Of a stretch of DNA of 64,000 nt, positions 1-64,000 are shown piece after piece; positions within the stretch are counted from its first letter, which is position 1, and every line of letters starts with the position of its first letter. Location of the stretch: NCBI GenBank assembly GCA_964387845.1, contig CAYLXA010000009.1, positions 32,001-96,000 of the forward strand. The letters are read 5' to 3'. A program made the translations under genes and the position numbers. The notes beneath the pieces are model-generated. The model ran no database searches. It saw nothing but the letters and a program-made list of their open reading frames with translations, and was not told the origin of the DNA. The DNA comes from an uncultured bacterium (GTDB taxonomy: Bacteria > Omnitrophota > Omnitrophia > Omnitrophales > Abzuiibacteriaceae).

Positions 1-3000
1 TTGGACCGTACCGCAGCTCTTTTAAAAGGTTGCCCTTGTACAATTTGAGCCGTACAAATTCACCAAAAGTTAAATCTTGAACAAACTCTTTCATCTTGAT
101 ACGGATATCAGGATCGTCACTGAAAAAATAAATTCCTTCCAAAACCGCAAGCGGCTCCGGATAGAAAACGCTTTCACGCTTGTACATTTCAAACATCCTG
201 TCTCTTGCTTGGCCATATTGCTGCGCGCTCAGCAATGGCTCAATAAATCCGCGCCAGTCATCGATAAAGGCCGGCGCTTGTTTTTTGATGTTTTCAGAAA
301 CTGACCCACGCAAGCGCGAATCTATGGTGTTGTAGAACGCATCCTTGTTCGAAAACGAATAACCGGCGCCGATTGTATTCAAAAATAATGCGAGATAAGT
401 CAATACGAAGGAAGTGGCGGATGTAAACCGGCCGGAGCGCGGGGTTTTTCGGAATGTTTTGATTAAATAGAAGCCGGATGAAGCGACGCCGACCGCAATG
501 GCCGTCACAACGGCTTTAAGCCCGAGCGGATAAATGATTAAATAAAATGGGTACGCAAAAAAGAAAGCACCTGAAACCAACGCTGCGCCTGTAATCAGCT
601 TTCGGACCGGAGAACTCGCAAGTTGAGGCGTCCACCACAAATACAGAAGCGGGATTGAAAATACAAAAGGCAGTGTCCATTCCATACCGACTCCGGTAAA
701 CCGGTTGAAGAAATAAAAATCACCGGGCGGCTTCAGGTAATTTTGCGTGTTATGGACCATGCGCCGCCAATTCGTTACGGCCGTCCAGGCAATCACCATT
801 TCCCATAACCGGATCCGGAACCGATACTGGGCCATATTAACTTTGTGGAGGACTTTAGCAGTTAGAATCAGTGATAACATCATCGCGGTATCTGCGATAT
901 GGCCGCCGATGTAATGAAGTGTATAAAAAAACTGCGAAGGCACCATGCCGGGAATTGGGTCTGCGTGAACATGGTCTGAATAACTCCGGAGCCCCATAAA
1001 ACTTGTCCAGGAAGGGTTATTCCAAAATTCCATAATCCGGTCCCAGTAAGGAAGTTCGATCCTGAGATTTTTATAGGTATCAGAAAGGAGAAGCTTGCCG
1101 AAAGCCCAATGACCGACGCCGTGAAAATACATGTCGAGCGGCCGGATCATGGTAATCCAAATCGTAAATGCCAGCGGTGCTTGAACCAAAGTATGCCACC
1201 TGAAATATCTTTTAAATGCAAAGGTTAACTGCTCCAAAAATTTTTCTAATCCTTCCGGAATTTCAACTTCTTTAGCATCCATGCTTGGGACTTCCGGTTC
1301 AGTAGGAATCAGCGGTTCAAGATTGACTGCTTCTGATTTCGGTAAGGGTTTGGCCGGCTTCACGACCTGCCGAAGTTCGCTCCGGGCTTCCGACCGAGAC
1401 TGAATAAAATCTGGAAAAATTTCACTCAGGGTTGATTGCGTAAAATCTTGCGGATTGGCGTATTTTTCTTGATAAGACCATCGCTCAAATTCAGATCCAA
1501 AAATACTTTCAAGAAATTGACTGTCACGTTCTGCAACCTTCTCCGGCAGAACAGCAATTAAGAATGACGGGTCCGCCAATAACCGTTCGGACATTCGTTT
1601 GTAAATTAATTCATTAATAGCGAATATTTCAAGCTCGCCTTCATCAGTTCCGCGCCAAGGCGACCGAAGGCCCTTTTGATTCCATTCAGAACCATCAATT
1701 GCAAATAACTCACGCAATAATTCTATAATCTCCTCACGCGATATCTTTTGGCCTGTTTCCTTGCCTGTGCTATCGACGGCTTTCAAATTAACAAACATCC
1801 GCGCCATGTAGTAAGGTATCGATTCCTTGCCTTCGCCCGGAAAAATATTTTTTGATATCGTAATATCCGTTGGCCGAAATAAAATTTCAGAATCATGAAG
1901 GCGTGCATCCAGCATGGCAGCCAAACCCCATAACATAAAATCTCTTTCGGTCGCCTGAATTAATTGTCCGGCATAGCGCGGGGTTGATTCTAAAGCTTTC
2001 CACCCCTGAGTTTTAGATTGAGCTACGATGAGCGGGATAAAATGCCTGACAGATTTCACCAGCAACTCATTATCAAGCGCTTGATAATCTGACTTAAATT
2101 TTTCAAAATGCATCCCGAAAAGCCGCAAATGTATCACGAGAGCAAGCCCCCTCACCCACCAAGTCAATAATTGATCGCTCAAAGATCCTCCGGCAAGCTC
2201 GGTAATCTCGTCTTCACTTGCAAACCAGGCAACCGGCTCTGTGATATCTTCATTCAAGAAAACCAGGTGCTGGTTGATACGGCCGTGGACCTGATCCCAA
2301 TTTCGCTTTCTCCAATAGGCCCTTAGTTCGTTCCCAATATTTTTTAAATCATCTTGCCCAAAACTTGGTTCAACCGCCTCGCTCCGCCGCGCTTCTATTT
2401 GAAGCAGTTCGCGTAATTTTTCCCGAAGAAATTCCCAAGATTGCCTTGCATTATCCAATTCATTTCGCCCTGAAAACTGATCTAACCGCTCTAGGACCGC
2501 ATCAAGCCAAATATTTGCGTCAAATCGATCAACAACACCGGGAGCTCTCAGAAGCTCAACGCCTGAATGAATCTGCCGGAGTTCGCTTCGGTAATAATTG
2601 GCAACAGCAGGAGGCAACAACCTCAGATTAATTCGGCCGAAAGACGGCGGTGTCACGGTTGAAGTCGGCTGAAGCGACATGACTTTGGCATAAGTATCAT
2701 CACGGTCAAGTTCGTGAATCCTGGGAATAACCGAAATATAGGAAAGATTGTTTTTGGTGATCAGTTCCTTAAGGCCTTCTTCGTGAAATCCGCCGGTCAC
2801 AAGCACGACCTTTTTATGCTTGTGCCGTTTCATGGTTTCTTTCAGATTTTTGAAAATAATTTTTTCCCGCAGCCGTGCGGTTTTATAGAAACGGAGGGAT
2901 TGCTTGATCAGGGCATCTGGTATCTGGTATCTGGTATCTGGTCTTCGATCAACTAGATACGAGATACTAGATACTAGATACGATGTTTGAATTTTTACGA

Positions 3001-4211
3001 GTTCATCCCGCGTCAATTCCAAATGAAACAGCTTGTTCAGGAGATGAAGGTCTTGAAACGCCCGGAGAATTTCTTTTTCTGCCTCCGTTTTGGCAAGCCG
3101 GCCGAGAAGCCGATCCGTAAGCTGCTCGATTTCGCCAAACAGAGCAGCTGCGTTCAGTTCCTGCGTGAGAATAATCCGGCCAAGCTCTTTCGATACTGCC
3201 GGAAAATCTTTAAAAGAAAATCCTTTGGCATGTGCTTTTGCATAAAAGGACTCCAGAAAGGCCCGTATCTGGTATCTAGTATCTGGTATCTCGCGGGCAG
3301 AGAGAAACTGATCAAATGATGCAATGAATGATTCAAAGTGATTCGCCTTGAGCCATTCAAAAAGCTTTGCTTTTTCACTAGATACTAGATACGAGATACT
3401 AGATACATCTTTTTCGAGTTCTTTGAGCTTAAAAAAGCGAACCAACTGCGGAAAATCGATTTGATGAATAGGGTCTGTAAGGTCAAGATCAAGATGCTGC
3501 TTTGAAAATTCCGAAAGCACGTTCAGGTGCGATAGCAACTCGCGCTTATCATCCTGAAAAAGAAAATAATCCTTCGTAAATTTGTAAAGCGCAGGATTGA
3601 AAACAAGGGATGCCTTTTTGGATAATTCTAATTTTTCTGTGCTGACCCACTCCTCGGCTTCATCCAGATGCCGGTACACTTTCCGGAACTGCGCCAGGTT
3701 GCGTTTGTAAACGCCGAGACTCTCGCTTCCGAATCCGGAGTAATCGTTTGACAATAGAAGAAGCTCCGGACCGCCGATCAAACCTTTCTCCAAGAGCTTT
3801 CGATTGATTTTGTTGTTCTGTTCTTCGTTCTCTGTGAAACGTAAAAGATTGTTTGGAATGTTGCCGGCAAGGCCGCCCTCCAAATACAACGTGTCGACTT
3901 TGTATTCCTTCTTGAGATGTTGAAGAATTTTTTGAATATTCTCTTGAGCGCCCAATTCACTGTGAGCGTCTTGGATGTGGATGACCAGCGGTAAGTCGTA
4001 AGTGGTAAGTGGTAAGTTTTGACCACCTGAAATAATCTCTTTTACTTCACCGAATTCTTCGGGAATGTGGAAAGAAACGGGCGGATTGAGTTCGACGCCT
4101 TGCGCGTAAGCAAGCGTGGAATTTAGCGTGAAAGCGATCAGCACAAACACACTAATCGCCTTGAGTATTAACAGATTCGGTTTTTTTATCGATATATTCG
4201 GTTGGTTCAAG
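1..4211 (-). CDS. Giant multidomain gene whose 3' end lies beyond the window start. It has a signal-peptide-like leader, a TraB/GumN/Tiki-like domain (GxxH motifs IQDAHSE and VTGGFHEEG) that is paralogous to the 524-aa gene at 49773..51347, two RSELR-delimited modules, and a C-terminal polytopic membrane domain containing HGVGHWAF. The start is tentatively TTG at 4209..4211.
   Basis: I translated the minus strand by hand: one frame is stop-free from 4211 to position 1. It is missing from the ORF track because no stop occurs inside the window. N-terminus: NQPNISIKKPNLLILKAISVFVLIAFTLNSTLAYAQG. RSELR is encoded at 2576..2590 and 1371..1385. Confidence 0.7.
2915..2985. repeat. In-frame palindromic heptamer element (GGTATCT/AGATACT type) inside the truncated giant gene.
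   Basis: catctggtatctggtatctggtatctggtcttcgatcaactagatacgagatactagatactagatacgatg. Translates as TSYLVSSISYLVDRRPDTRYQIPDA. Confidence 0.7.
3264..3407. repeat. Split copy of the GGTATCT/AGATACT palindrome. The arms at 3264..3292 and 3377..3407 are separated by 84 nt of coding sequence.
   Basis: gtatctggtatctagtatctggtatctcg ... cactagatactagatacgagatactagatac. Confidence 0.65.
3990..4017. repeat. Single arm of a GTAAGTG-family element embedded in frame near the 5' end of the truncated giant gene.
   Basis: ggtaagtcgtaagtggtaagtggtaagt. Translates as NLPLTTYDLPL inside the TraB-like domain. Confidence 0.65.
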
Positions 4212-4213
4212 AC

Positions 4214-4246
4214 ATAAAAAATAAGCCCTTCCCTCAAGGGCTTATC
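4214..4246 (-). terminator. GC-rich hairpin aagccct-tccctc-aagggctt followed by a U-tract on the minus-strand RNA. It could be an intrinsic terminator after gpsA or a leader structure before the next gene.
   Basis: Perfect 8-bp inverted repeat at 4224..4244, flanked by an A-run at 4216..4222 on the plus strand (U-run on the minus-strand RNA). Confidence 0.5.
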
Positions 4247-4255
4247 GATGTGAAA

Positions 4256-4284
4256 GTATACCTTATTATTAGGTGTAATTCAAG
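4256..4284 (-). promoter_or_regulatory. Candidate sigma70-type promoter, TTGAAT-17 nt-TATACT read on the minus strand, for the downstream giant gene.
   Basis: The plus strand reads agtata at 4256..4261 and attcaa at 4279..4284, with a 17-nt spacer between them. Confidence 0.35.
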
Positions 4285-4331: not shown

Positions 4332-4393
4332 TTAAGTCGTAAGTGGTAAGCTAATCGAGCAACTTAAAACTTACAACTTATCACTTAAAACTT
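4332..4393. repeat. Heptamer-based palindromic intergenic element of the GTAAGTG/CACTTAC family.
   Basis: Left arm taagtcgtaagtggtaag, right arm cttaaaacttacaacttatcacttaaaacttg. Sits between the gpsA stop and the downstream hairpin. Confidence 0.75.
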
Positions 4394-4397: not shown

Positions 4398-5429
4398 CTA
4401 ACGCTTACCGAGGGAATAGGGCCTTAATTCTTCTTTCGGCTCCCGGTCGAGGAGATCCTGAACGGCTCGAGCAGCGCTCTTGCCTTCAAAGAGGACGTTG
4501 TAAACTTCTTGAATGATCGGCACTTCAACGCGGTAGCGTTTGGCAAGCTCCATCGTCGAGCGCGCGGTTTCGACACCTTCCGCCACCATGTCCATGCCGC
4601 GTAAAATGTCTTCGATTTTTTCGCCTTTACCAAGCTGCTGCCCAACGCGCAAATTACGCCCAAATTCGGAAATACAGGTCGTCACCAAATCGCCGAAGCC
4701 GGCCAAACCGAAAAACGTGTTGGGATTGGCGCCCATTTGAACACCCAAATGCATCATTTCCAAAAGCCCGCGTGCTAGCAGCGCCGATTTGGTGTTGGAC
4801 CCAAATCCCATGCCGTCGCAAATACCGGCTGCAATGGCAATGACGTTCTTCACGGCAGCTGCGAGCTCAACACCGACCACATCGCTCTGAACATAAATCC
4901 GGAAATGATGGTCGCGAAATGTCTGCTGAACTTTCTCGGCCACTTGCTTATCGGGCGACGCCGCCACAACCAGAGTCGGAATGTTGCGGACCACTTCTTC
5001 CGTATGCGACGGGCCCGACAAAACGGCGAGCTTCACATCGCCGAGCACCGACTGGATAATTTGCGAAGGCCGCATGAGTGTTTTTTTCTCAACGCCTTTT
5101 GTCGCGCTGACTAAGATCTTTTTTGATAAATCACAATCGCGCATTTTAAAAAGTACGTTGCGCAAAAACTGCGAAGGAATCACGAGAACAATGTAATCGC
5201 CGAATTCAATGGCCTGATGAATATCGCTGGTGAACTGCAGACGCTCGGGAAGTTTGATTCCGGGCAGGTACTTTGGGTTTTCCCGCTTGGTGCGGAGAAT
5301 TTCGACATATTCTGAAAAAGCGCTCCAAAGCATCACGTCGTGGCCGATGCGTTCGCTGACCATGGCAAGTCCGGTTCCCCAGCCGCCGTCTCCGAGCACT
5401 GTGACTCTTGTTTTACGCTGAATACTCAT
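4398..5429 (-). CDS. gpsA: NAD(P)H-dependent glycerol-3-phosphate dehydrogenase.
   Basis: VTVLGDGGWGTGLA Rossmann motif, NPKYLPG, SGPSHTEEV, GLAGFGDLVTTC and further family motifs along the full length. Confidence 0.9.
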   Translation of the reverse strand: MSIQRKTRVTVLGDGGWGTGLAMVSERIGHDVMLWSAFSEYVEILRTKRENPKYLPGIKLPERLQFTSDIHQAIEFGDYIVLVIPSQFLRNVLFKMRDCDLSKKILVSATKGVEKKTLMRPSQIIQSVLGDVKLAVLSGPSHTEEVVRNIPTLVVAASPDKQVAEKVQQTFRDHHFRIYVQSDVVGVELAAAVKNVIAIAAGICDGMGFGSNTKSALLARGLLEMMHLGVQMGANPNTFFGLAGFGDLVTTCISEFGRNLRVGQQLGKGEKIEDILRGMDMVAEGVETARSTMELAKRYRVEVPIIQEVYNVLFEGKSAARAVQDLLDREPKEELRPYSLGKR

Positions 5430-5774: not shown

Positions 5775-5840
5775 TTTTAAGTGATAAGTGGTAAGTGCTA
5801 AGTTGTTCGATTAACTTATCACTTACCATTTAAACCTTAC
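5775..5840. repeat. Heptamer-based palindromic intergenic element of the GTAAGTG family.
   Basis: ttttaagtgataagtggtaagtgctaagttg / aacttatcacttaccatttaaaccttac. Confidence 0.75.
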
Positions 5841-18741: not shown

Positions 18742-18747
18742 GTTTTT

Positions 18748-18810
18748 AGTGATAAGTGATAAGTGGTAAGTGGTAAGCAACTTAAAACTTACCACTTACA
18801 ACTTACGACT
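18748..18810. repeat. Heptamer-based palindromic intergenic element of the GTAAGTG family, between the 5718-aa and 3270-aa genes.
   Basis: tagtgataagtgataagtggtaagtggtaag / acttaccacttacaacttacgact. Confidence 0.75.
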
Positions 18811-49771: not shown

Positions 49772-49772
49772 C

Positions 49773-54300: not shown

Positions 54301-57300
54301 CCCAACCTGCAGCGGCTCCTGTCAGAATTTTTAACGGCAGGTTCAATTCCGACCACGCGCTGCGTAGTTCGGAACGATGAGTAGTAACGGGGACGGTAGA
54401 CCCCACAACGCCAAGAAGATCGAAACGTGCGCTGCTGTCCACGCGCTGGTCTGCTTTTGTGATTAAATCAAAAAGAGACTGCAAAGCTTGTTTCTGATTT
54501 TCGTCGCGGACTTGCGCAAAAGCAAGCTGCAAAGCAGCTTCGGCATGGCTAAGCTGGCCTTTATTGAAAATCACGGCGGCCTGACGGACTAAAGATTCTA
54601 AATCGACAATTTCCGTAGGAAGCGGGGCAAATGGAAGCGATTCAAAAAATTTCCGGCTCTCACGGTCAGCAAAAGCTTGAGGCGTAATGCCTTCCGCTTT
54701 GGCGCTTTGCAAAATAACTCTCGTGCGGTGTTGGATTAAAGCCGCGATAGAACTATCGGAAGAATCATGCCCCAAATGGCCGTCAACTCCGGTGACGCCA
54801 CCGGCATTGGAAATATAATCCGGAACCGGTGTAATGCCCGCTGCTTTCAGCTCTTCCGCATCTTTCACCTTATCATAAAGCACATTATTCGTAGACCCGA
54901 CAACGCCCTTTACTCCGGCAAACATTAACTCTTTTGCAGCATCCGCATTAATCACAGGCCCTCGGGCTGCCGGCACAAAAATATCGACATGATCAACGCC
55001 CAGCCGGTTAAAATCATCTTTGAAATGCTTTGCCGGATTAAAAATCTTGGTTGTATAACCGCCGCCGGTTTTCGGTTCTTCCAAAAAGTGAAAGAAACGG
55101 TTTTGGTCAGCGTAAGTTTTAAGCGCCGGATGATCTTCGAAAAGTTTATCGATCCTTCCCTGGCTTACATCCGAAGCGATGACAACGCCGCCTTCATCCA
55201 AAATGGGCTGAATGACTTCGCTGCCGACACCACCCACGCCTTGAACTGTGAAAACTTTTCCCGCGATTTCGGGATTATCGGGAAAAATTTCTGATAATAA
55301 ACCTTTTAATGAAGCAATGATCCCAACGCCGGTCGGATGAGTCGGGACTTTGCTGTTTCCGGTTTCATCCGAATAAGGCACGATTGAAGTCGGCGCAAAT
55401 TTAAACAGCAGTTCGGCGTCCCGGACCGAAATATTCATGTCTTGTCCCGTTAAAACACCGCCGCCGATTAAATTTCCTATTTTCTCAACTGCTTTAGCGT
55501 AACTTTCAAGAATCGCATCGCGTTCGGGAGACTGAACCGCCGGATTAACCTTGTGGCTTCGGATAGCCGATTTGGAGCCGCCGATTTTTAAACCATTAAT
55601 ACCGGCACCTGCATTTTTAAAACTCATTTCCTGAGAAAGTTCAAGAGCATCAATCAACGCATCGACATCGCTTTGATAGCTCAAAATTCGCGTGCCGCCG
55701 GTAGCGCGCCACTGCCCGTTTAGGACACGGCCTTTGCTCTGAATTTGGGTAAGCCGGTGAATGGCAACATAAGCGGTATAACCCAAGATCGGGTTGTCAA
55801 TTTGAAATACGGCGTAATGCCGGTCCCAATGCTCACGGATCTGATCGACTGCTTCCGGAAAAGCCGCCATGAAATCACTCAAATTGCGCAATGCGTGGAT
55901 TTCGGTGCCATCCGGCATCACCATTCCGTCAAGGCGCTTTGGGTCCAACCGGTTGGCTTCGATATCGTATAAACGCAAATCGGCCACAACAGCTTTGGCC
56001 TGCCCCACAACCGATTCGCCCTGCGAATGATAAAGCCCGATTTCAATCCGCTCAAAAATGCCGATTAACTGTTCAAAGGATTCCGCGAGAGATAAAAGTG
56101 TTTGCGCAGTGGGCGTACCGACAATATTAAATTTTTTTCTGGTTGAAAAATCTCTTAATACGGCAGCGAAACTCTGAAACTGGAAATTTAAGATTTGGAC
56201 AGTCTTAAGATTGATTAATCCTGCATCAAGTACAACTTGAATATCGGTTTTGATTTTATTAAAAATCGGAGCGCGCACAACATCGCCCGCTACATCTCTT
56301 TCACTTTGTGTTGCCGCCGTTTCTTCCAGTTTCTGCGAACTGCTCTGAATTAACTGGACGCTTTCCAAAATAAGCCCCAGAACTTCACGAACATCCTTCT
56401 GCCGCAGCTCGGACTTTGCCAAATGGCTTGGCAAAGCCGAAGCAGTCCCGCGCAGTTCAGCGCGGGGCAGCTCGGCCGTTGATTTCGCCTCGGAGCGGGA
56501 AAGTTCTTCGAGAATAGAATCGGGTTGATTTGGATCGAGTATTTCCTTTAATTTTGCCAAAGCGATACTTCTATCTGAAAAATCTTTAACAGCCTGTATC
56601 AATTCTGACAGCGCCTTGCCTGTAGGACTCGTCGGCGCTTCAGCACGAGTCCGATGTTTGTCATAGCGTAGCGAATCTACTAAAAGAAACGCTTCGTGGG
56701 CTTTGCCGTGAAGCTGCTTCCACCGATGGTATGTATTGGGCATATTTCGTTGGAAGCCTGCTAAATCTGACTCCAGTTGCTCAAATATTGATTGGGCTTG
56801 AATAAGGCTGCTGTGAATAAATCTTATATCCTTTTCGGTTTGATGAAATTCCGGAGCGCTTGGGTTGATCATGACCAAGACAGGAGGAAATTTTTGTTTC
56901 ACTTTCTGAACCATAGGAATAAGTTGAGTTAAAATTTCTTCAAGAGTCGCGCGCAGCTCGGAGCGCGAATTCTTGAAAGCGTTGTTTCGGACGCCGGATT
57001 GATACTTGAAAGAGGTGTAAACATAAGTAATCGCAGCACCAATAAGCCCTGCGCCTACGCCGATCAGAATATACAGCGGCGTTGATTCAATGCCGTATCC
57101 AATACCGAGGATCGGAACGCTTACCGCGCCGGCGATGCCACCTGTAAAAAGACCGATAACCACGGAGTGAAGCACGCGCTCCCCTCGTGACATGTCTTTC
57201 AAAATACTGAATGACCTCGCCCGCAGCTCGGACTTTGCCAAATGGCTTGGCAAAACCGAAGCAGCCCCGCGCAGTTCAGCGCGGGGCAGCTCGGCCCTGT

Positions 57301-59173
57301 GAAGACGCTCCGTATCCACAGGTCTCTCGAGTTGTGGTTCCGAAGGAACTTTACGAACCTCGGAACGGCTATGCAATAATGGTAGTTTCGACAAAGGCGT
57401 ACCTGCATTGCTATCGAGAAACTCTTGAACGAGCTTAGAAACTGTTTCCGCTTTTGCGTTTTCTGCTTTAACAGTAATAAGCCATGTTGGATAACTATCC
57501 GCCCAAATAAACTGAAGGTCTTGATATTTCAAAAACCGTCGTGTTCCATAATAAGAATCGATAATTTCAACACCATTTTCATTTTGAGAAACAACCACGC
57601 CTTGAATGTCGTCACTCTCCTTAATTTTTGCGTGCAGAAAATACCAATAACCCTTTACTCCAGGCTTATTATTCCCAAGATGAAAATGCATCCGATCCCA
57701 AAGATTCATCCAATCCTGGATACCTTCCACAACTTCAATAATTTCAATTTTCTTAGCTTTCTGTTTGGACTGCCGCAGCTCGGAGCGGGGCTTTTCGCCG
57801 TCACGCAGACGTGAATGCCGGGCTTGAGTAATGTGCGGCGTATCGTCTTCCACGGGCTCTTGAATATCCTTAGGATCTGCGCCGTGGCGAAGCTTTTGAA
57901 GATACGTCAAGTCAGCGTCTGCCTGCGGCGGCGTTTGGTCATCTTCCGATGCGTGGCGTAATTCTGAACGTTGGTCAGTTTTAGGTTGCGGTGTTAATGT
58001 GGGCCACTCCTCCCAAACCCATTTCTTTCTCATACGTTCTTCCGCCGGATAATCAGTTGTACCAATCATGAAATGTGAGCCATGAGGAGAGAGCCAATAT
58101 TCATCCTCTGCACGGCCTTTACCAGAACTTACGGTCAGGACGAAATCTTGGTGTTCGCTAAGAATGGCGGTTACTTTTTCAACAAAAGCTTGTGTCGTGG
58201 CTTCATTCATTAAACGGTATCTCAAATTTGCTACTTCATCGTCAATGAAATCTTCAGAAGGCAATAAACCGCTTAAATTTAAATTTCTCACCTTCTCTTC
58301 AATGCTGTGAATAATTTGATTTTTTCTGATTTCACGCGCACTTAACACAGGAGCAGATTGATACGCCTTGCGCACCATGCGGTAATAAGTAATCGCAGCG
58401 CTAATAAGCCCTGTACCAACGCCGATCAAAACAGATGAGGCGGTCGATTTAATGTTGTATCCAGTGCCGAGAATCGGGACACTCAAAGAACCGACAATAC
58501 CTCCGACAAAAACACCGATGAGCAAGGTATTGGCAATAAGTTCTCCCCGCGACATACCCTTAAAAGCTCTTGCTCGCAATTCAGAACGGGATTCTGATCG
58601 AGTTTCGATTGAAATTTGAACTTGATCGGTAGAGGCAACTATCACGTTCTCAAGCGCAGGCTTTAAGTCAAAACGGATAACTAACCAATCCGTACTGACC
58701 GGAATGTTGCTTCCGTTGATTGAGATACCGGAAATACGGACATGGGACCAGGGGTCAAATTTGAGATGCAAACCGGTTTTTTGGCTGACGATATTTAAAA
58801 TATCCAAAACGATTGAAGAGAGTTTCTTAGTTCCAATGCGCTGATTGTAAGAATACGGTTCTCCGTTGATGGTAAAATTGATATTCGACAGAGCCCGTTC
58901 GGTTGATTGCTCCGGAAGTCGTAATTCTGATTTTTTACCAAAATCATCCTCCGGAATTTCCAGTTTTGCGGGGATTTCAATGCCTGCTTTACGAAGCTCA
59001 GAACGCACGTTTGAGAACCCAGTGTGCGCTTCCGGATTTGCCCGTATGTGATAAACTTCGGAATTTTTAAGCGCAACAGAAGACGCAAAATCCGTGTAAC
59101 CGACGGTACTAGTAAATGTAAAAGTGATGAGGAGTGTGAGCGAAATAATCTTCAAAAATGGCTTGCCGGACAT
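51386..59173 (-). CDS. Giant membrane-associated polyprotein-like gene of 2595 aa. It has a leader, a two-transmembrane hairpin module present twice, a Glu/Leu/Phe/Val-dehydrogenase-like module, and a TetR-like helix-turn-helix module. It carries the most RSELR motifs of any gene: 12 exact plus six variants (PRAELR, KSELR).
   Basis: Stop-free frame of 7.8 kb with an ATG at 59171..59173. Leader: MSGKPFLKIISLTLLITFTFTSTVGYTD. Confidence 0.8.
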   Translation of the reverse strand: MSGKPFLKIISLTLLITFTFTSTVGYTDFASSVALKNSEVYHIRANPEAHTGFSNVRSELRKAGIEIPAKLEIPEDDFGKKSELRLPEQSTERALSNINFTINGEPYSYNQRIGTKKLSSIVLDILNIVSQKTGLHLKFDPWSHVRISGISINGSNIPVSTDWLVIRFDLKPALENVIVASTDQVQISIETRSESRSELRARAFKGMSRGELIANTLLIGVFVGGIVGSLSVPILGTGYNIKSTASSVLIGVGTGLISAAITYYRMVRKAYQSAPVLSAREIRKNQIIHSIEEKVRNLNLSGLLPSEDFIDDEVANLRYRLMNEATTQAFVEKVTAILSEHQDFVLTVSSGKGRAEDEYWLSPHGSHFMIGTTDYPAEERMRKKWVWEEWPTLTPQPKTDQRSELRHASEDDQTPPQADADLTYLQKLRHGADPKDIQEPVEDDTPHITQARHSRLRDGEKPRSELRQSKQKAKKIEIIEVVEGIQDWMNLWDRMHFHLGNNKPGVKGYWYFLHAKIKESDDIQGVVVSQNENGVEIIDSYYGTRRFLKYQDLQFIWADSYPTWLITVKAENAKAETVSKLVQEFLDSNAGTPLSKLPLLHSRSEVRKVPSEPQLERPVDTERLHRAELPRAELRGAASVLPSHLAKSELRARSFSILKDMSRGERVLHSVVIGLFTGGIAGAVSVPILGIGYGIESTPLYILIGVGAGLIGAAITYVYTSFKYQSGVRNNAFKNSRSELRATLEEILTQLIPMVQKVKQKFPPVLVMINPSAPEFHQTEKDIRFIHSSLIQAQSIFEQLESDLAGFQRNMPNTYHRWKQLHGKAHEAFLLVDSLRYDKHRTRAEAPTSPTGKALSELIQAVKDFSDRSIALAKLKEILDPNQPDSILEELSRSEAKSTAELPRAELRGTASALPSHLAKSELRQKDVREVLGLILESVQLIQSSSQKLEETAATQSERDVAGDVVRAPIFNKIKTDIQVVLDAGLINLKTVQILNFQFQSFAAVLRDFSTRKKFNIVGTPTAQTLLSLAESFEQLIGIFERIEIGLYHSQGESVVGQAKAVVADLRLYDIEANRLDPKRLDGMVMPDGTEIHALRNLSDFMAAFPEAVDQIREHWDRHYAVFQIDNPILGYTAYVAIHRLTQIQSKGRVLNGQWRATGGTRILSYQSDVDALIDALELSQEMSFKNAGAGINGLKIGGSKSAIRSHKVNPAVQSPERDAILESYAKAVEKIGNLIGGGVLTGQDMNISVRDAELLFKFAPTSIVPYSDETGNSKVPTHPTGVGIIASLKGLLSEIFPDNPEIAGKVFTVQGVGGVGSEVIQPILDEGGVVIASDVSQGRIDKLFEDHPALKTYADQNRFFHFLEEPKTGGGYTTKIFNPAKHFKDDFNRLGVDHVDIFVPAARGPVINADAAKELMFAGVKGVVGSTNNVLYDKVKDAEELKAAGITPVPDYISNAGGVTGVDGHLGHDSSDSSIAALIQHRTRVILQSAKAEGITPQAFADRESRKFFESLPFAPLPTEIVDLESLVRQAAVIFNKGQLSHAEAALQLAFAQVRDENQKQALQSLFDLITKADQRVDSSARFDLLGVVGSTVPVTTHRSELRSAWSELNLPLKILTGAAAGWVGLIVVGTIIGLTLLAYWRLKPQATNQTSGSQVANDNDDEFDLMSAAVAGSSVTDQSSTRKFRLWIGNVLLSIFFRLFVREIKDQNSTPKSSSDDAHRSELRNSLVRLAISAGASAISGFVVYQLTKWLSHDPSKPMQVAIGVSFISTFLIYLFLSLFKKSAEADREAEKLLAELETQAGSAEKSELRASEYSDLVYAGSQYIAGGLFAGVISLVTLVIKRGFSAFANRTNTPFSSAASKEAKVTPQEYLRSHLISAFGRAHRNLDILPRIEIKLHPDPDEDIVNFKFDIANETLIIEISNFTLSAAIRAPAVIAKQIVALIPEDILNTIYLGPEDAEVVASRSELRNNLGGSVSIASDFFYIVSQYGFAALGAGLWAALWVVPIKLSKQRSDFKLGRKAVELSGPFHIAIKYVGRKQRVFLIEPYSYKIAISEKVEGQTYLIAELYRDGDQRVSNLLTLEWLINRINLTMPKQAEAGAVPSARVSKRGTFYFVTVAQTAEQSGQADSDTDGIQEPRSELRATEATPDQVNSAIDRLFADYVKSSGSNIDNQTVPAFIDTLEIKDVEREIQGGSGASEAIAVTGTQLMEGIRAFRSRQSGRSELREETETPKMSVRDRILDTVKRLGQEGRLQTTLTELAAEADVAYDTLVNYRKSDPAIEAVIQWAVTEGSLRNSKDQMETKPAPTRDRLRVALQSMVQGKIKHPTLKSLSGALGLKLPNLSTYQRTDSGIRDLISKIVVRRNVGPSAESQLAATSEKSGIRSELRASSAVVDDFATLGDMVDRNARTELGGFVYAAVENLRFPNYDDPTSTIRFFDYFAPSQSDQVLGTILTQDLVLAESERTEKGQELLWALRFIVPKVDRIAFVVDSTGEAAIRDVLQGISIDHVVFSRSYPDARRQLIEKGANKTRILASKREKAFFERLGERYKSLVEYVSREDVSALYRALGIRDIVEQLSIQLRSELRTLRSA
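52300..52480 (-). other. TetR-like helix-turn-helix segment embedded in the giant gene.
   Basis: RDRILDTVKRLGQEGRLQTTLTELAAEADVAYDTLVNYRKS resembles the TetR N-terminal helix-turn-helix. Confidence 0.4.
54750..55950 (-). other. Amino-acid (Glu/Leu/Phe/Val) dehydrogenase-like module.
   Basis: GGTRILSY, GLKIGGSKSAI and VQGVGGVGSEVIQPILDEGGVVIASD (Rossmann). Confidence 0.5.
56398..56480. repeat. About 80-bp in-frame element made of two perfect hairpins (ctttgccaa/ttggcaaag and ccccgcgc/gcgcgggg); copy 1 of 2.
   Basis: Near-identical to the copy at 57218..57296. Encodes PRAELRG(T)ASALPSHLAKSELR. Confidence 0.7.
57218..57296. repeat. About 80-bp in-frame double-hairpin element; copy 2 of 2.
   Basis: Direct repeat of the copy at 56398..56480, about 820 bp away. 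Confidence 0.7.
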
Positions 59174-59461: not shown

Positions 59462-62400
59462 TTAGGCGCGCGATAGGACTATTTGGTATGAACGGATGAA
59501 TTGATCGATAGCTTCGACGGCTTTCCCAAGGCGGCCTCGGATACTGCTAATCATATCAGCCGTGAATAAAACAACGCTTGTGAAATAATCACTCAGTTCA
59601 CTTCTCACGATTTCTGCCTCATGGCTTGAATCCGTAAAGTAAATGTTAGTCCGGATTCCCTTCGAACGCATGAGTTTGGCTAATTTTTCAGGCGTTGCGG
59701 CATATAAAATTTGTCTATCAATGGGAAGTGATGCATTGAGTTCATCGACAAAGCGAAGTTCGGAACGCGTGGGTGTTACAAATCCGATTCTCACATTCGA
59801 CTGAGCTGCAATTTGAACATAATACGGCGCGAGCCCTTCATCGAACACAATGCTCCGCGCAAATACCCAGCCTTGGCTGGTACTATCGTGAATAAGTTTA
59901 TCAGCAGCCATGGAGCGGTGAAGCTCGGAACGTAATCCGGGGTTTTGTTGAAGCTGGGTTCCAATGGCCTGATGCGCTTTTGTTAGAGATGAAAGCCTTG
60001 TATCAGTAATATTGAGGGCATCTTCTGCATTTAGCCTTTGGAAATCCGCGCTTGCTGTCCTTGAATTCCGAAGCTCGCTGCGGACTTTCCATGGATTGGA
60101 CCTTTCCGGAGGATTTGTATACTTGTTACGTTCTGTTATTACTCGCTCAAGCCCTTCCTTTGCGCTATTGACAGCGGCCGACGCAGAAGCCCATTTGCTC
60201 GGATTAAGTAATTGCGTGCCATCCGGCTCTTCTGCAATTGGTGTTAAATGTTGAAGCTCGGCCCGCCGAAGATCGAGCTCTTTCTCTGCTAATGCGACAC
60301 GCGCATTTAAGATTGCTCCTTTTTGCTTGCTTGCTTCGGCTTCGGTCAATGCCGCCTGCGCTGCATTGAATGCTGCTTCAGCCGCGGCCACTTTGGGATG
60401 AACTGTTTCAGTGCTTGCTCTTAATTCAGAACGCGATTCAAGAAATTGACGGTATGCTGCCAAGCTGGCAGATTCTGTGCGCGTATTGCCGTCTTTAACA
60501 GTATCACCGGAAATATGCGCAAGCTGCTCACGCTCAAGCCAATCAAACACGATGCCGCCGGTTGAGATGTACCGATTCTTTACGCTTTCCGATTCTAACG
60601 TTTCGCCGCCTTCGGTCCTGACGCGGACTTCATAGGAAGCAACAAAGGTCGGGTCGTTGGATGAAGCGCGAATCACGAAGCGCCCCGCCTCTTTCCCGGC
60701 TTCGTCTTTGAAGCGGATATCCGCAAACCGGTAAAGGCCGTCTTCGCCCTTGAAAGTTATGACTTCCCGGACTTTAAAAATACCGGCCGGCGATAAAAAT
60801 TCTTTTTCTTTTGAGAATTCTTGAATTGCTTTTTCAACCGTCAGGTCACGGCCGAGCGCAATAATTTTCGGATTGGGTGTTGCTGTATCGCTATATTGAT
60901 ACCCCGTATCGTTGCGCGGATCTCCTGCCAATTTTTGCAAAAGCGACGCCTGAAACGGCGGTTGAAACCGCGTTGATTGTTTATAGGGTTTTGCATAATG
61001 CTCGAATGCCGCTTCAAACGGAAATGGATTTTGTGTTTTGTGTTCTTGGGCGTATTGAGCAACTTGAATAACCGAAAGCACTGCCACTGCAATCGGATTT
61101 TCGTATTCGCCGGTCACATCGAGCCACGCATGACCGGAGCGCTCGCTCAACATGGGGATACTGTAACCTTTCCCTTTTAATTCTTTGGCTTTTGCCTTCA
61201 AAAACGGGTAGCCGGAATCGGTTATAAATGTTTCAATTCCGTTTTCCCCGGCTGCATCTGCAACACCCAAAGTCGAAAGCACATCACTAATCACCGCCAC
61301 ATGCTCGGAGGAACGTGAATGATAACCGCCTCGATTAACCAAAAATGGGATGAGGATGGCCATTAAATTATCCGGCGGGAGCACAAGGAAACTGCCGTCC
61401 TTTCTCTTAATCACAATTGCTCCGCGATCGCCGTCCAAATCAAACGCGAGGCCGATATCAATATTTTCATCAGACATTTTGGTTCTTAATTCTTCAAGAT
61501 TGGCCATAATAGACGGATCCGCTTTGTGCATTCCCGTAATCGACTGAACATCGCCGTTAATTAAAACGGCTTCGGCGCCCAAATTTTTGAATACAGCTTC
61601 CGCCAAATATCCGCTTGGTGTGTGGGCACCGTCAATCGCAATCCTAAGCCCTTCAAAGGGCTTTTGAAACATAACATACCCTGCGATCCGCTGCTCCCAA
61701 TCTGATAATACTTTTTCCGGGAAATCACTCTTTCTCAATTGATCAGCCAAATTAAAAAGATTCGCCGCGCTACCTCCGATACCGGCAACTCGGCCAACCA
61801 GCGTCGTTATGCGGACAGTATTAACATCTACGTTCAGCGCCCGGATATAACCTGACCTTTCGCCGGCATCGTGCACCATCCATCCGTAATCAGCCATGTA
61901 CTTTTGGACCATCGGAAGCGACACTGCTTTGATTTCTTGTGTCGTCAGACTCGCCAAGCGGCCTTCTTCGTCCTGTATGCTGACTTTTGCGCCGCGAATT
62001 TCATCCGTGCTGGCCACATGGCTCGACGTCAGCAAAACACTGACGAGCGGCTGTATCTCGCGCACCGCCCAAGAATAAGAAGTTGCAGCATTCGGGCCGT
62101 CTTCTGCCGTATATACCACATCCAAACCTGCATATAAAAATCCTGCGGTCAAAGCTTCGACAAGTTCGGGTTCGATTTTGCGTGCATCGCGCGCAATGAC
62201 AACCGTTTCATTTTTAGAACCCGATTTCTTTGCCTTTTCAAACGCCATCCGTGCCCACGTAAGACCCCACAAAAACCAAAGCTTCGGCGACGGCGCATGT
62301 TCTTTGTCTCGTGAACGGTAATCATAATCGCGCGCCATGAGTTTCACGAGCGTTTCATCTGCTTCGGTTGCCTTCATACGAATATATTTGGAGATCAGCT

Positions 62401-63952
62401 TCGTCGCATCCATCTCGGAAAGCCGTCTTAATTCGCTCCGTGCGGCAATTTCATTGCGCAAAGCTGAAAATGCACTGGATATTTTCTCGTTCAATTCCGA
62501 GACTTGCGCTGCGGTTCCGGCCGAAATCATTTCGGCCAGCTTTCCTTCCGCCTGAGAAGCGGCGGAACCTTGAAACTGCGACTGCAGCGACTGCCATTTT
62601 TCCTGAATTTCCCTGGAACGTGCGTGGAGCTGCGTGGAAAGTTCTGAAAGCTCTTTCAAATTTTTTGATTCGATTTTTGTTTTCGCGGCAAGCTTGACAA
62701 TTTCCTGGAGTTTTTCCTCCCAATACCGGAAACCAAACAGCCATAATTTCCCGCTTTGAACTTTCAACGCCGCATCCAAATCACTCATTGCTTCGATCGC
62801 CGCGCTAAACTCCGCATAAAACCGTTCGGCCGGATAAGGCGTAGCAGCAACTTCATGAAATGCGGCAGCGAACGGCTTTGCAACATTGTCCACCAAAGTT
62901 TTCAAGGCGGCTTCTTTTGCTTTTATGTCGGATTTGTCGCTATTGAGAGTTTTGCGTGCCGAAGGAAGCTCTGAAGACCTGACTGTATCGGTAACAAATA
63001 TCTGGACAGCGTCATTTTCAACCAAATCTCCCAAAACCTGCAGTTGCGGCATTGAGTGAGACTGGGCCGTATAAATACCCGTCAAAATATTTAACAATTC
63101 TTTATCTTGGGCATCTTTCCAATCGACTGATAAGTTTGAAACAGAAATAGGCGTTTTGCCAATATGCCTAAATTTGCTGGTGATAAAAATTTTAATTTGG
63201 CTTTCGCTGATTTCAGGAGCTATTTTGTCAAATTCACCCGCACCAAAAGCTTGTTTAACAACAGCGGCCAAAACCTGCTTCAATGTATTCCGGCCACCAA
63301 CCTCCAATTTAAATTGCCGGACATTTCCGCGTATGTTGAGATTGATCACGAAATAAACCTTAGCACTTCCCTCGCCAAGCTTGGGTTGATTGGGCTGGAT
63401 TACCGTTGTGCCGGCGGCAGGCTCTGAAGCATCCGGTTTAAAAGGTGATTCAAGCGTTACCGAATCTGCGCTTGGCGCTTTTACGGAAACTGAAATAACG
63501 AACTTGGTCAAGCTGGCTTTAACAGGTTTGAGAGCCGGGCTGGCAGCAAATTCAACATCAGTCAAGACCGGTTTTGGCGCAGGTTTCTTGACTTCTTCTT
63601 TCTTATTTCCTTTAGCATCGTGATCGGCCTTGCGGGCTTCTTCAACTTCAACTTGCGGGACACTTCTTACCGCCTGAATGAATACAACACCGTGCAAAGA
63701 CTGAAATTCTTCCAATGCCTCAATCATCGCCTCATCCCATTTCTCGGGGCGCACACCTTTCGCTAATTGATTCAGGAAATAAAGCCGGCCTTGATTGACA
63801 GCATGAAGCTCTGAAATCGCATCCCAAATTTCGCCGATTTCTTTGACAACCTCCGGTGTAATCCTGATTTTACTGTCGGTCAACTTCTTTGCGATATCAT
63901 CCCTGAGCGCTTTTTCTTCGCGCAATTCCGAACGTCTTTCTTTTTTTGGCAT
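59462..63952 (-). CDS. Large gene of at least 1497 aa with no leader. It has an RSELR motif at residues 7-11, an alpha-D-phosphohexomutase (PGM/PMM) module, and the conserved C-terminal domain. The 5' end may continue beyond the window end.
   Basis: The first ATG is at 63950..63952, but the frame stays open up to position 64000 (VYAPVWVWDSLPQLSL precedes the Met). Confidence 0.7.
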   Translation of the reverse strand: MPKKERRSELREEKALRDDIAKKLTDSKIRITPEVVKEIGEIWDAISELHAVNQGRLYFLNQLAKGVRPEKWDEAMIEALEEFQSLHGVVFIQAVRSVPQVEVEEARKADHDAKGNKKEEVKKPAPKPVLTDVEFAASPALKPVKASLTKFVISVSVKAPSADSVTLESPFKPDASEPAAGTTVIQPNQPKLGEGSAKVYFVINLNIRGNVRQFKLEVGGRNTLKQVLAAVVKQAFGAGEFDKIAPEISESQIKIFITSKFRHIGKTPISVSNLSVDWKDAQDKELLNILTGIYTAQSHSMPQLQVLGDLVENDAVQIFVTDTVRSSELPSARKTLNSDKSDIKAKEAALKTLVDNVAKPFAAAFHEVAATPYPAERFYAEFSAAIEAMSDLDAALKVQSGKLWLFGFRYWEEKLQEIVKLAAKTKIESKNLKELSELSTQLHARSREIQEKWQSLQSQFQGSAASQAEGKLAEMISAGTAAQVSELNEKISSAFSALRNEIAARSELRRLSEMDATKLISKYIRMKATEADETLVKLMARDYDYRSRDKEHAPSPKLWFLWGLTWARMAFEKAKKSGSKNETVVIARDARKIEPELVEALTAGFLYAGLDVVYTAEDGPNAATSYSWAVREIQPLVSVLLTSSHVASTDEIRGAKVSIQDEEGRLASLTTQEIKAVSLPMVQKYMADYGWMVHDAGERSGYIRALNVDVNTVRITTLVGRVAGIGGSAANLFNLADQLRKSDFPEKVLSDWEQRIAGYVMFQKPFEGLRIAIDGAHTPSGYLAEAVFKNLGAEAVLINGDVQSITGMHKADPSIMANLEELRTKMSDENIDIGLAFDLDGDRGAIVIKRKDGSFLVLPPDNLMAILIPFLVNRGGYHSRSSEHVAVISDVLSTLGVADAAGENGIETFITDSGYPFLKAKAKELKGKGYSIPMLSERSGHAWLDVTGEYENPIAVAVLSVIQVAQYAQEHKTQNPFPFEAAFEHYAKPYKQSTRFQPPFQASLLQKLAGDPRNDTGYQYSDTATPNPKIIALGRDLTVEKAIQEFSKEKEFLSPAGIFKVREVITFKGEDGLYRFADIRFKDEAGKEAGRFVIRASSNDPTFVASYEVRVRTEGGETLESESVKNRYISTGGIVFDWLEREQLAHISGDTVKDGNTRTESASLAAYRQFLESRSELRASTETVHPKVAAAEAAFNAAQAALTEAEASKQKGAILNARVALAEKELDLRRAELQHLTPIAEEPDGTQLLNPSKWASASAAVNSAKEGLERVITERNKYTNPPERSNPWKVRSELRNSRTASADFQRLNAEDALNITDTRLSSLTKAHQAIGTQLQQNPGLRSELHRSMAADKLIHDSTSQGWVFARSIVFDEGLAPYYVQIAAQSNVRIGFVTPTRSELRFVDELNASLPIDRQILYAATPEKLAKLMRSKGIRTNIYFTDSSHEAEIVRSELSDYFTSVVLFTADMISSIRGRLGKAVEAIDQFIRSYQIVLSRA
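60900..62250 (-). other. Phosphoglucomutase/phosphomannomutase-family module.
   Basis: LTSSHVAS (TASHNP-like), AFDLDGDRG and SERSGH (GEESG-like). Confidence 0.6.
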
Positions 63953-64000
63953 CAAACTTAATTGGGGCAGCGAATCCCAAACCCAAACGGGAGCGTAAAC

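Follow-up and report, generated by a model that had tools for sequence, protein, structure and literature searches.

RSELR, a pentapeptide recurring at the joints of giant multi-enzyme proteins in an Omnitrophota bacterium, as a putative processing site

Introduction

Giant proteins in which many enzymes share one polypeptide have already been described in Omnitrophota, and their cleavage has been proposed (10.64898/2026.06.07.730766; West-Roberts et al., 10.1101/2023.11.21.568195). C39 and S8 domains were named there as possible proteases, and the cleavage points were stated to be unknown (10.64898/2026.06.07.730766; 10.1101/2023.11.21.568195); whether the giants act whole or cut is a question that these studies ask, and the lack of known cleavage points blocked analysis in one of them (10.1101/2023.11.21.568195). 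The presence of export signals on enzymes that use cytoplasmic cofactors was noted as a paradox (10.64898/2026.06.07.730766). Here we describe a stretch of 64,000 nucleotides (the window) from an uncultured Omnitrophota bacterium (assembly GCA_964387845.1, contig CAYLXA010000009.1, positions 32,001 to 96,000), in whose six giant genes the pentapeptide RSELR recurs at the joints between enzyme blocks. With about even confidence, we propose that a processing protease acting in trans uses RSELR as its lineage-specific site and would free cargo blocks from carrier polyproteins made of a leader and a common C-terminal domain.

The window giants resemble the published ones in belonging to the same phylum, in having unrelated enzyme families of Pfam tiled along one polypeptide, and in combining signal peptides and/or transmembrane (TM) helices with enzymes of cytoplasmic type; they differ in size, the catalogued proteins having at least 10,000 residues (aa) against 2.6-5.7 kaa here. 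Viral polyproteins (potyvirus NIa with ENLYFQ/S, coronavirus PLpro with LxGG/, flavivirus NS3 with dibasic sites, the slash marking the cut) are alike in that one open reading frame (ORF) holds many complete proteins with a short, strict site at their junctions, that the protease is itself a module (compare the TIKI-like module of giant T below), and that the site differs by lineage (compare RSELR and DGG below). In contrast, the present genes lie on a cellular chromosome, their products have export-type leaders and a common C-terminal domain, many junctions lack a site, and cleavage is predicted. In double-glycine leader/C39 systems a leader of ~50-100 residues ends in a short motif, and sister lineages of this bacterium use DGG there and at internal joints; the window, however, has RSELR, its DGG is not enriched, and its giants lack the combination of GG at the leader end and a C39 peptidase (no C39 match in Pfam scans). 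The MARTX toxins of Vibrio are also giant proteins with exchangeable effector modules on linkers, site-specific proteolytic release and a content shuffled between strains, and their effector RRSP has a TIKI fold that acts as a sequence-specific endopeptidase (PMC6254334). They differ by an internal cysteine protease cutting after Leu, by RTX repeats and by toxin delivery, whereas the cargo here is housekeeping and the site a strict pentapeptide; neither that protease domain nor RTX repeats are found in the window giants (no C80 or RTX domain in Pfam scans).

The sequence-only reading of this DNA knew of no described bacterial system built in such a way. This has to be narrowed, since Omnitrophota giants with many enzymes are known and have been suggested to be cleaved; what is new here is the motif, a putative protease-type punctuation, and the apparent parallel code DGG. 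Neither of the two studies (10.64898/2026.06.07.730766; 10.1101/2023.11.21.568195), nor the literature covered by full-text searches, was found to contain the delimiter motif, its DGG form, the leader/C-terminal frame, the cassette breakpoints or the syntenic TIKI-fold family.

Giant genes and their enzyme content

Six very large ORFs, here called T, A, B, C, D and E, all lie on the minus strand of the window and are chromosomal, beside hrcA-grpE-dnaJ (Table 1). According to Pfam, A carries PEPCK, TIM, a Metallophos-type module and an ACP-like module, and B carries two 3-hydroxyacyl-CoA dehydrogenases (3HCDH), an MCM-type mutase, an acyl-CoA synthetase (AMP-binding), an HpcH lyase, a MaoC hydratase and an acyl-CoA dehydrogenase (ACAD). 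C has an AprA-like methyltransferase (MT), MeaB, MCM with a B12-binding domain, biotin carboxylase plus carboxyltransferase (BC+CT) and a small kinase; D has a Glu/Leu/Phe/Val-dehydrogenase-like module and E a phosphoglucomutase (PGM). As in viral polyproteins, several complete proteins are thus contained in one ORF, with full-length Pfam matches to PEPCK, TIM, MCM, MeaB, BC+CT, 3HCDH, ACAD, AMP-binding, PGM and others. Tiled by many distinct Pfam families, none of them dominant, and of Omnitrophota origin, the giants fall into class 1 of the multi-enzyme giants of 10.64898/2026.06.07.730766, and with 2595-5718 aa they stay below its catalogue threshold of 10,000 aa.

Giants E, D and C are also found as database proteins P0087, P0088 and P0089. 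The 1497-aa protein that the sequence-only reading took for a complete gene has a frame open to the window edge and is the tail of the 4770-aa P0087, that is, of giant E. The full protein possesses a normal leader, RidA-like, UDPGP-like, HEAT and PGM modules, and 14 copies of RSELR; a leaderless cytoplasmic giant was rejected for E, the apparent loss of the leader being a truncation at the window edge.

RSELR is conserved as a peptide

RSELR occurs 50 times in the six giants (T 2, A 15, B 8, C 8, D 12, E 5 within the window), compared with 0.034 copies expected from their own amino-acid composition, and is by far their commonest 5-mer; a chance or compositional effect was rejected on these figures. 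All 50 copies lie on the minus strand within two coding frames, and the other four frames of the window contain none. The sequence-only reading had counted about 47 copies, with 12 in giant A (its 3270-aa protein); the strong excess over chance holds, but the true numbers are 50 and 15, while its counts for the other five giants were borne out. Two of its example positions were off by one (correct are 1370-1384 and 19423-19437) and the others stand. It had also listed the near variants RSELH, RSELQ, KSELR and RAELR, which are present and, together with RAELQ, make 11 in all. No copy was found in HrcA, GrpE, DnaJ, GpsA or the 524-aa protein of the window, as it had said, nor in the 4880 residues covered from the lineage's non-giant proteins, where 12.8 would be expected at the density of the giants (P = 3e-6).

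The 50 copies are encoded by 49 distinct 15-mers, in which all six codons each of Arg, Ser and Leu are used in near-background proportions. RSELR is therefore under selection as a peptide and not as a nucleotide site, in agreement with the earlier view of its mixed codons. A wider consensus, which that reading had proposed to look for in the flanks, does not extend beyond a weak preference for S, A, T or P at position -1 and A at +1; around the motif S, P, T, N and Q are over-represented, and W, Y, C and G are scarce. A self-cleaving element was rejected on this lack of conservation, because a motif of five residues with unconserved flanks cannot cleave itself; any reader would then be a separate protein or module. 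In the literature, searches for RSELR brought up software names (varSelRF) and a catalytic motif of PL7 alginate lyases, R(S/T)ELR, which is unrelated, and nothing else; the window giants have no PL7 domain.

The same data bear on whether the motif is an artefact or acts at the level of nucleic acid, as an assembly chimera, a recombination scar, a hidden stop or recoding signal, or a ribosome-skipping peptide. The giant ORFs do derive from metagenome assemblies, and the giant of one relative has an in-frame TGA. However, no single codon is common to the 49 15-mers, and a nucleotide-level signal or recombination scar was rejected on this codon diversity. Known skipping peptides need ~18 conserved residues, unlike the unconserved flanks of RSELR. 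The motif recurs in at least five further samples or genomes, and an assembly chimera was rejected because the window agrees with an independent Logan assembly at 100% identity across 16.7 kb and the same ORFs exist as P0087-P0089. An origin of this kind is highly improbable.

Placement relative to enzyme domains

None of the 50 copies lies within residues covered by Pfam domains, although these residues make up 33% of the giants (P = 1.6e-9), and in the out-of-window part of P0087 RSELR is likewise outside Pfam domains. Copies stand 5-19 residues away from where the profiles of PEPCK_N, 3HCDH_N, Biotin_carb_N, AprA_N, TIM (as RSELQ), ACCA, AMP-binding_C and MT36 begin or end. Judged from these profiles, the positions of RSELR are those where the termini of free-standing enzymes would be. 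The placement read from the sequence earlier, in front of PEPCK, of biotin carboxylase and of each 3-hydroxyacyl-CoA dehydrogenase module and flanking the kinase module on either side, was confirmed, and a position at domain boundaries agrees with the Pfam result; it does not describe several copies that lie inside the conserved C-terminal domain rather than in linkers (see below). Nor does RSELR separate every enzyme module. Four blocks of 1000-1860 residues are undivided by it, namely PEPCK+TIM, MeaB+MCM+B12+methyltransferase, 3HCDH+acyl-CoA synthetase and HpcH+MaoC+ACAD. As in viral polyproteins, a short junction site is kept in orthologues, although some enzyme junctions here are without it.

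Conservation and rearrangement in relatives

A metagenome scan with the family of the 524-aa protein gave 80 loci, designated below by L numbers; a set of species-representative genomes gave a single match, the Candidatus Omnitrophica metagenome-assembled genome PCVY01000066. Wherever a relative's homologue of the 524-aa protein is at least 62% identical, the giants of that relative are enriched in RSELR. The counts are 10 RSELR and 4 RAELR in L002/L003/L008, 8 RSELR in L010/L001, and 17 RSELR and 7 KSELR in 5498 aa of L091; L090 is sparser, with R[AS]ELR. In orthologous blocks of 43-53% identity (L008, L010) the junction RSELR is kept exactly with indels adjoining it, so that the same motif does stand at the same module boundaries in homologous genomes, as the sequence-only reading had proposed to check.

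Block order differs between L008 and giant C. In L008 the methyltransferase block (residues 92-754 of C) is joined straight to the BC-CT block (2988-4068 of C) at a single RSELR, and the MeaB-MCM block, which lies between them in C, forms the next L008 gene, behind a leader and RSELR. Hence fusion or fission breakpoints coincide with RSELR.

In L008, a single in-frame TGA (4791-4793) splits a would-be 2544-aa giant into ORFs of 868 aa and 1675 aa, with the leader at one end and the C-terminal domain at the other. This could be a real split, readthrough or recoding, or an error.

Other short motifs in sister lineages

RSELR is absent from the giants of more distant Omnitrophota among the scanned loci. 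In eight independent loci (L006, L034, L036, L048, L066, L084, L086 and L087) the giants are enriched 5- to 16-fold in DGG, with unrelated flanks. In the L084 and L087 giants DGG lies 9-22 residues from Pfam domains (GDPD 785-1007 with DGG at 776 and 1018; HEAT 1260-1377 with DGG at 1248 and 1378; Cation_efflux 1395-1580 with DGG at 1378 and 1597), and the first DGG is 65-90 residues from the N-terminus, akin to the first RSELR. The window giants contain 4 DGG against 5.4 expected, no enrichment, and always inside enzyme domains. From these positions DGG appears to be an alternative delimiter to RSELR, the two being mutually exclusive. In the giant ORFs of L064 AGLE occurs 6 times against 0.19 expected, again with unrelated flanks, and may be a third type of delimiter; many of the scanned loci have giants with no detectable motif. 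Two short motifs doing the same positional job in related lineages are what is expected of a recognition site co-evolving with its reader.

A different use of the pentapeptide would be as a modification or regulatory site, in which phosphorylation of Ser by giant-borne kinase modules, or modification of Arg, marks the blocks for regulation or turnover. With its R-S-x-x and R-x-x-x-R contexts the motif is similar to the sites of basophilic kinases, modules of kinase type are present in the giants (AAA_18 in C, AceK in the relative L091), and some copies lie inside a folded domain. Yet a regulatory site has no reason to sit at module termini or rearrangement breakpoints, the DGG of sister lineages offers no modifiable Ser or Arg, and no cognate kinase is conserved across loci. 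We regard modification as improbable.

Leader and C-terminal domain as a common frame

Every complete giant starts with a signal-peptide-like leader (K-x-I-S..FTFT..AYS/D), continues with cargo blocks and ends with a common C-terminal domain of ~200 residues; the first RSELR lies 55-160 residues from the N-terminus. A twin-arginine or lipobox signal was rejected as the type of leader because the sequence does not fit. The C-terminal domain opens with an invariant RSELR and closes with a tail of small residues, often RSELRxxxxA(A); proteins ending in RSELRxxxx(A)A, as noted earlier, are A, B and D. At further positions within this domain some giants have RSELR and others RAELK, LAEQR or RRQLI, which means that some copies lie outside linkers. 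RSELR spacings of 29-60 aa occur near the N- and C-terminal regions of the giants.

Within the C-terminal domain, RSELR stands between strand-Pro-Thr and an amphipathic helix (PT-RSELR-VIEEINA). It might thus be a purely structural linker, a helix-capping box (Ser as N-cap, then E-L-R) after a flexible joint and with no reader, and the residues of RSELR are all helix-compatible. Caps, however, tolerate many sequences, whereas the exact pentapeptide is kept 50-59 times between unrelated flanks, and the 4880 residues from ordinary proteins of this lineage contain no copy; sister lineages, moreover, put the helix-breaking DGG at the same joints. A purely structural role is accordingly one that we think quite improbable.

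A word-indexed homology search with the C-terminal domain of B gave no matches, and a profile of the C-terminal domain gave no meaningful match among PDB sequences. An exhaustive profile search of 1.84 billion proteins found the domain in only 6, of which 3 are the window's own giants, so that it is confined to a rare clade. The other 3, P0090, P0091 and P0092, have the leader and the C-terminal domain in common with the window giants and nothing else, with 3-6 RSELR each; P0090 ends in RSELRLAYSA and P0091 in RSELRIAYAA. Their cargo (an Rce1-like protease in P0090, HEAT repeats in P0091, no Pfam match in P0092) is unrelated, and the frame is therefore a carrier for variable cargo.

P0090 (L088 456-4103) is a carrier of 1215 aa whose cargo is an Rce1-like (CPBP) intramembrane protease. 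The C-termini of A-E and of relatives are small-residue tails (..MAA, ..RAA, ..RSA, ..SRA, ..QAA, ..YSA, ..YAA), which recall the C-terminal tags recognised by tail-specific or AAA+ proteases; DGG-type lineages have other ends (..VRV, ..NRV, ..NKI).

Candidate readers of the motif

Pfam scans of the window giants, among them a lenient one of every unannotated segment, found no peptidase family. Between giants D and C lies a free-standing 524-aa protein, which is P0001 in the database, where the copy starts two residues later, and which has 86 homologues; those that are named are almost all Omnitrophica or Omnitrophota. It shows the parallel beta-sheet TIKI fold, so that the earlier label 'TraB-like' is right at the level of fold. 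Like the first module of T, it has the fold core of the TIKI/TraB/PrgY/erythromycin-esterase superfamily with a His-Glu pair and a second His; its family differs by a helical insertion of ~300 residues, by restriction to Omnitrophota and by scores below Pfam thresholds. The catalytic-type set H74, E102 and H467 is invariant in 40 homologues, and the first acidic residue is Asp72, not Glu. H74 and E102 are 28 residues apart, the same spacing as in the TIKI-fold His-Glu pairs of RRSP (H3902/E3930) and Bcr135 (H85/E113) (PMC6254334). The TIKI-like gene lies beside large same-strand ORFs, downstream at 42/48 loci and upstream at 27/36. A full paralogue that keeps the conserved residues forms the first module of giant T, with RSELR after it, and L090 repeats this arrangement, a TIKI-like module coming first after the leader in two of its giants (15460-20991 and 20991-21992). 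From fold, residues and neighbourhood, the TIKI/TraB-fold hydrolase is a candidate reader of RSELR.

In the L091 giant (8906-18463), residues 1844-1987 form a trypsin-fold S1 peptidase module with an intact His/Asp/Ser signature (TNRHV, DLALIK, GASGSPV). It starts ~30 aa after an RSELR and is fused to an AceK kinase/phosphatase in an RSELR-bounded block. No counterpart was seen in the window. This module is a possible second candidate.

A 118-aa bAvd / 23S-rRNA-IVP-like gene stands between the TIKI-like gene and the next giant in L002 (11613-11969) and L091 (8578-8934); it is not in the window, where the TIKI-like gene abuts giant C.

Proposed processing and its weighing

We infer, for this lineage, cleavage at RSELR, the position of the cut, the enzyme responsible and the compartment as follows. 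Metabolic enzymes (of the CoA-ester/methylmalonyl type, PEPCK, TIM and PGM) are encoded within giant carrier proteins, with RSELR as a putative recognition site at the joints between leader and cargo, cargo and cargo, and cargo and C-terminal domain, and again near the C-terminus. A trans-acting endopeptidase would read the pentapeptide and cut the precursor into blocks, which would strip the leader region and dismantle the C-terminal domain; a cut after the second Arg would leave products with natural-looking enzyme N-termini. The reader would be the TIKI/TraB-fold hydrolase or, as second candidate, an S1 module as in the close relative. Of the delimiter for protease processing put forward by the sequence-only reading, the peptide-level delimiter stands, with support from the junction copies kept in orthologues and the breakpoints at RSELR; cleavage itself is the predicted part.

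Several findings weigh against this proposal. Exact copies of RSELR occur at variable positions in the conserved, presumably folded C-terminal domain (B aa5646; the PT-RSELR-helix position); cuts there would fragment a domain, and the close spacings would give tiny peptides. An AlphaFold model of the domain from five window sequences was unusable (predicted local distance difference test, pLDDT, 42). If RSELR did nothing but separate modules, a site 5-9 residues from the C-terminus would be unexpected. As for the reader, the best Pfam match of the 524-aa protein is PF04187 at 18.9 bits (E = 0.0016), below the cut-off of 27.7, and no NCBIfam match was found; TIKI-fold proteins include esterases, heme binders and non-catalytic binders such as ChaN. 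The TIKI-like gene is equally present in DGG lineages and in lineages without a detectable motif, and is thus linked to giants generally rather than to RSELR. Finally, the TIKI-like protein and the giants have export-type signals, and the cargo enzymes need cytoplasmic cofactors.

Some of these findings would suit a short linear docking motif that is bound but uncut, the partner being a chaperone, a translocation or targeting factor, a membrane scaffold that clusters the blocks, or the TIKI-like protein in the role of a binder, a role that the fold has in ChaN. The 29-60 aa clusters in the terminal regions and the C-terminal domain fit multivalent binding better than the separation of enzymes, as do the copies next to the C-terminus; many enzymes remain fused with no motif between them, and a leader/C-terminal-domain carrier with variable cargo resembles targeting systems. 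On the other hand, placement at natural enzyme termini and breakpoints that always fall on the motif speak for blocks as autonomous products, strict conservation of five residues and replacement by DGG in sister lineages are typical of protease sites, and the TIKI-like family keeps its catalytic-type His/Glu set invariant. Docking is therefore doubtful, though a serious contender.

For the phylum at large, there is a wider picture that we hold only as tentative: much of central metabolism in Omnitrophota may be made as exported or membrane-targeted polyproteins, with a leader, exchangeable cassettes and a C-terminal handling domain, and a lineage-specific punctuation code (RSELR, DGG, possibly AGLE) may be read by co-evolving dedicated proteases, either the syntenic TIKI-fold family or giant-borne protease modules. 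If true, viral polyprotein expression would have a cellular counterpart on the scale of a chromosome.

A strict and countable delimiter (RSELR, or DGG in sister lineages) yields a map of putative products that can be checked against metaproteomes and can be used to split giants for structure prediction and annotation; recognising the units hidden in giants should improve the reconstruction of Omnitrophota metabolism. If cleavage is true, a cellular organism would apply the strategy of viral polyproteins to housekeeping metabolism, with stoichiometric co-expression and cassette shuffling, and the protease and its site would be a new pair and a possible tool. The localisation puzzle becomes sharper, with export-type leaders on enzymes that depend on ATP, CoA or NAD.

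Table 1. Giants, RSELR copies and variants, frame elements and neighbouring features of the window (aa, residue in the giant named)
Feature	Positions	Strand	Remarks
Giant T	1..4279	-	>1426 aa, cut by left window edge; leader, TIKI-like domain, RSELR, unknown module, RSELR, multi-TM region
Giant A	8929..18795	-	3288-aa ORF, likely start ATG at 18741; Metallophos-type module, ACP-like module, PEPCK+TIM block, TM module, C-terminal domain; 15 RSELR + RSELQ
Giant B	18817..35973	-	5718 aa; 3HCDH, ADH_zinc, MCM-type mutase, 3HCDH+AMP-binding, HpcH+MaoC+ACAD, C-terminal domain; 8 RSELR + RSELH
Giant C	36245..49786	-	4513-aa ORF, 4508 aa from ATG at 49771 (P0089); AprA-like MT, TM modules, MeaB+MCM+B12+MT, BC+CT, AAA_18 kinase, C-terminal domain; 8 RSELR + KSELR
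Giant D	51386..59173	-	2595 aa (P0088); repeated 2-TM modules, Glu/Leu/Phe/Val-dehydrogenase-like module, C-terminal domain; 12 RSELR + 6 variants
Giant E	59462..64000	-	ORF as called 59462-63955; C-terminal ~1510 aa of 4770-aa gene (P0087), cut by right window edge; PGM module, C-terminal domain; 5 RSELR in window, 14 in full protein
RSELR, T aa564	2576..2590	-	just after TIKI-like domain
RSELR, T aa966	1370..1384	-	
RSELR, A aa87	18523..18537	-	end of leader region
RSELR, A aa263	17995..18009	-	
RSELR, A aa497	17293..17307	-	
RSELR, A aa1212	15148..15162	-	
RSELR, A aa1394	14602..14616	-	9 aa past ACP-like domain
RSELR, A aa1466	14386..14400	-	16 aa before PEPCK_N profile position 1
RSELQ, A aa2514	11242..11256	-	variant; 5 aa past end of TIM profile
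RSELR, A aa2605	10969..10983	-	
RSELR, A aa2673	10765..10779	-	
RSELR, A aa2747	10543..10557	-	TM helix 14 aa downstream
RSELR, A aa3000	9784..9798	-	
RSELR, A aa3083	9535..9549	-	start of C-terminal domain
RSELR, A aa3123	9415..9429	-	inside C-terminal domain
RSELR, A aa3183	9235..9249	-	inside C-terminal domain, PT-RSELR-helix position
RSELR, A aa3221	9121..9135	-	inside C-terminal domain
RSELR, A aa3279	8947..8961	-	5 aa from C-terminus
RSELR, B aa159	35485..35499	-	before first 3HCDH Rossmann fold
RSELR, B aa1683	30913..30927	-	
RSELH, B aa1750	30712..30726	-	variant; 7 aa before MCM match
RSELR, B aa2778	27628..27642	-	7 aa before 3HCDH_N profile position 2
RSELR, B aa3767	24661..24675	-	16 aa past AMP-binding_C
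RSELR, B aa5484	19510..19524	-	
RSELR, B aa5513	19423..19437	-	start of C-terminal domain
RSELR, B aa5646	19024..19038	-	inside C-terminal domain; aligns to RRQLI in D
RSELR, B aa5705	18847..18861	-	9 aa from C-terminus
RSELR, C aa59	49598..49612	-	leader region, R[SA]ELRxxLGLP-type position
RSELR, C aa94	49493..49507	-	11 aa before AprA_N; conserved in L008 and L010
RSELR, C aa740	47555..47569	-	19 aa past MT36 match; rearrangement breakpoint relative to L008
RSELR, C aa813	47336..47350	-	
RSELR, C aa1128	46391..46405	-	before MeaB; conserved in next gene of L008
KSELR, C aa2659	41798..41812	-	variant; after B12-binding domain
RSELR, C aa2989	40808..40822	-	9 aa before Biotin_carb_N; rearrangement breakpoint relative to L008
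RSELR, C aa4077	37544..37558	-	19 aa past end of ACCA profile
RSELR, C aa4301	36872..36886	-	after kinase module; start of C-terminal domain
RSELR, D aa57	58991..59005	-	leader region
KSELR, D aa81	58919..58933	-	variant
RSELR, D aa196	58574..58588	-	TM helix 11 aa downstream
RSELR, D aa402	57956..57970	-	
RSELR, D aa463	57773..57787	-	
RAELR, D aa631	57269..57283	-	variant
KSELR, D aa647	57221..57235	-	variant; before repeated 2-TM module
RSELR, D aa737	56951..56965	-	
RAELR, D aa904	56450..56464	-	variant
KSELR, D aa920	56402..56416	-	variant
RSELR, D aa1600	54362..54376	-	TM helix 16 aa downstream
RSELR, D aa1722	53996..54010	-	
KSELR, D aa1808	53738..53752	-	variant
RSELR, D aa1967	53261..53275	-	
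RSELR, D aa2141	52739..52753	-	
RSELR, D aa2225	52487..52501	-	
RSELR, D aa2387	52001..52015	-	start of C-terminal domain
RSELR, D aa2586	51404..51418	-	5 aa from C-terminus
RSELR, E aa8	63920..63934	-	numbered in window fragment; aa3281 of full 4770-aa protein, internal site
RSELR, E aa506	62426..62440	-	before PGM module
RSELR, E aa1175	60419..60433	-	
RAELQ, E aa1231	60251..60265	-	variant
RSELR, E aa1292	60068..60082	-	start of C-terminal domain
RSELH, E aa1342	59918..59932	-	variant; inside C-terminal domain
RSELR, E aa1397	59753..59767	-	inside C-terminal domain, PT-RSELR-helix position; LAEQR in L010 orthologue
Leader of T	4100..4186	-	KKPNLLILKAISVFVLIAFTLNSTLAYAQ
Leader of A	18655..18741	-	MNLKHKLIKMTASATLFAFTFSSSMAYSD
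Leader of B	35875..35973	-	MKMKNSPAKSVQKIISAVLVLTFSFTNTIAYSE
Leader of C	49688..49771	-	MKQNYFLKLISALLVVSFSFTSSIAYSD
Leader of D	59090..59173	-	MSGKPFLKIISLTLLITFTFTSTVGYTD
C-terminal domain of A	8932..9549	-	5 RSELR; ends RSELRTSMAA
C-terminal domain of B	18820..19437	-	ends RSELRNVIELGRAA
C-terminal domain of C	36248..36886	-	ends ..MTRAA
C-terminal domain of D	51389..52015	-	ends RSELRTLRSA
C-terminal domain of E	59465..60082	-	ends ..VLSRA
524-aa TIKI/TraB-fold hydrolase	49773..51347	-	free-standing, own signal peptide, no RSELR; candidate reader
TIKI/TraB-like paralogue	2675..4225	-	first module of giant T (aa 19-535); H, E, R, E, R and GGFH positions conserved; RSELR 28 aa later
(AAGTNRT)n repeat sites	4334-4386, 5779-5824, 6981-7054, 7659-7669, 8853-8919, 18754-18804, 3993-4017		

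Other features of the locus

Small PilZ genes follow giants in a distant lineage (L004, 9466-9798 and 20897-21226), as reported by West-Roberts et al. (10.1101/2023.11.21.568195); none is present in the window.

Palindromic repeats based on the heptad (AAGTNRT)n have 25 pattern matches in the window against 0.09 expected, and form hairpin-like pairs in each intergenic gap between B and T. The array at 3993-4017 is in frame within the TIKI-like domain of T, where it adds ..LPLTTYDLPL.., a segment absent from homologues, and the A and GrpE ORFs have spurious extensions at their N-termini in which the element is translated too.

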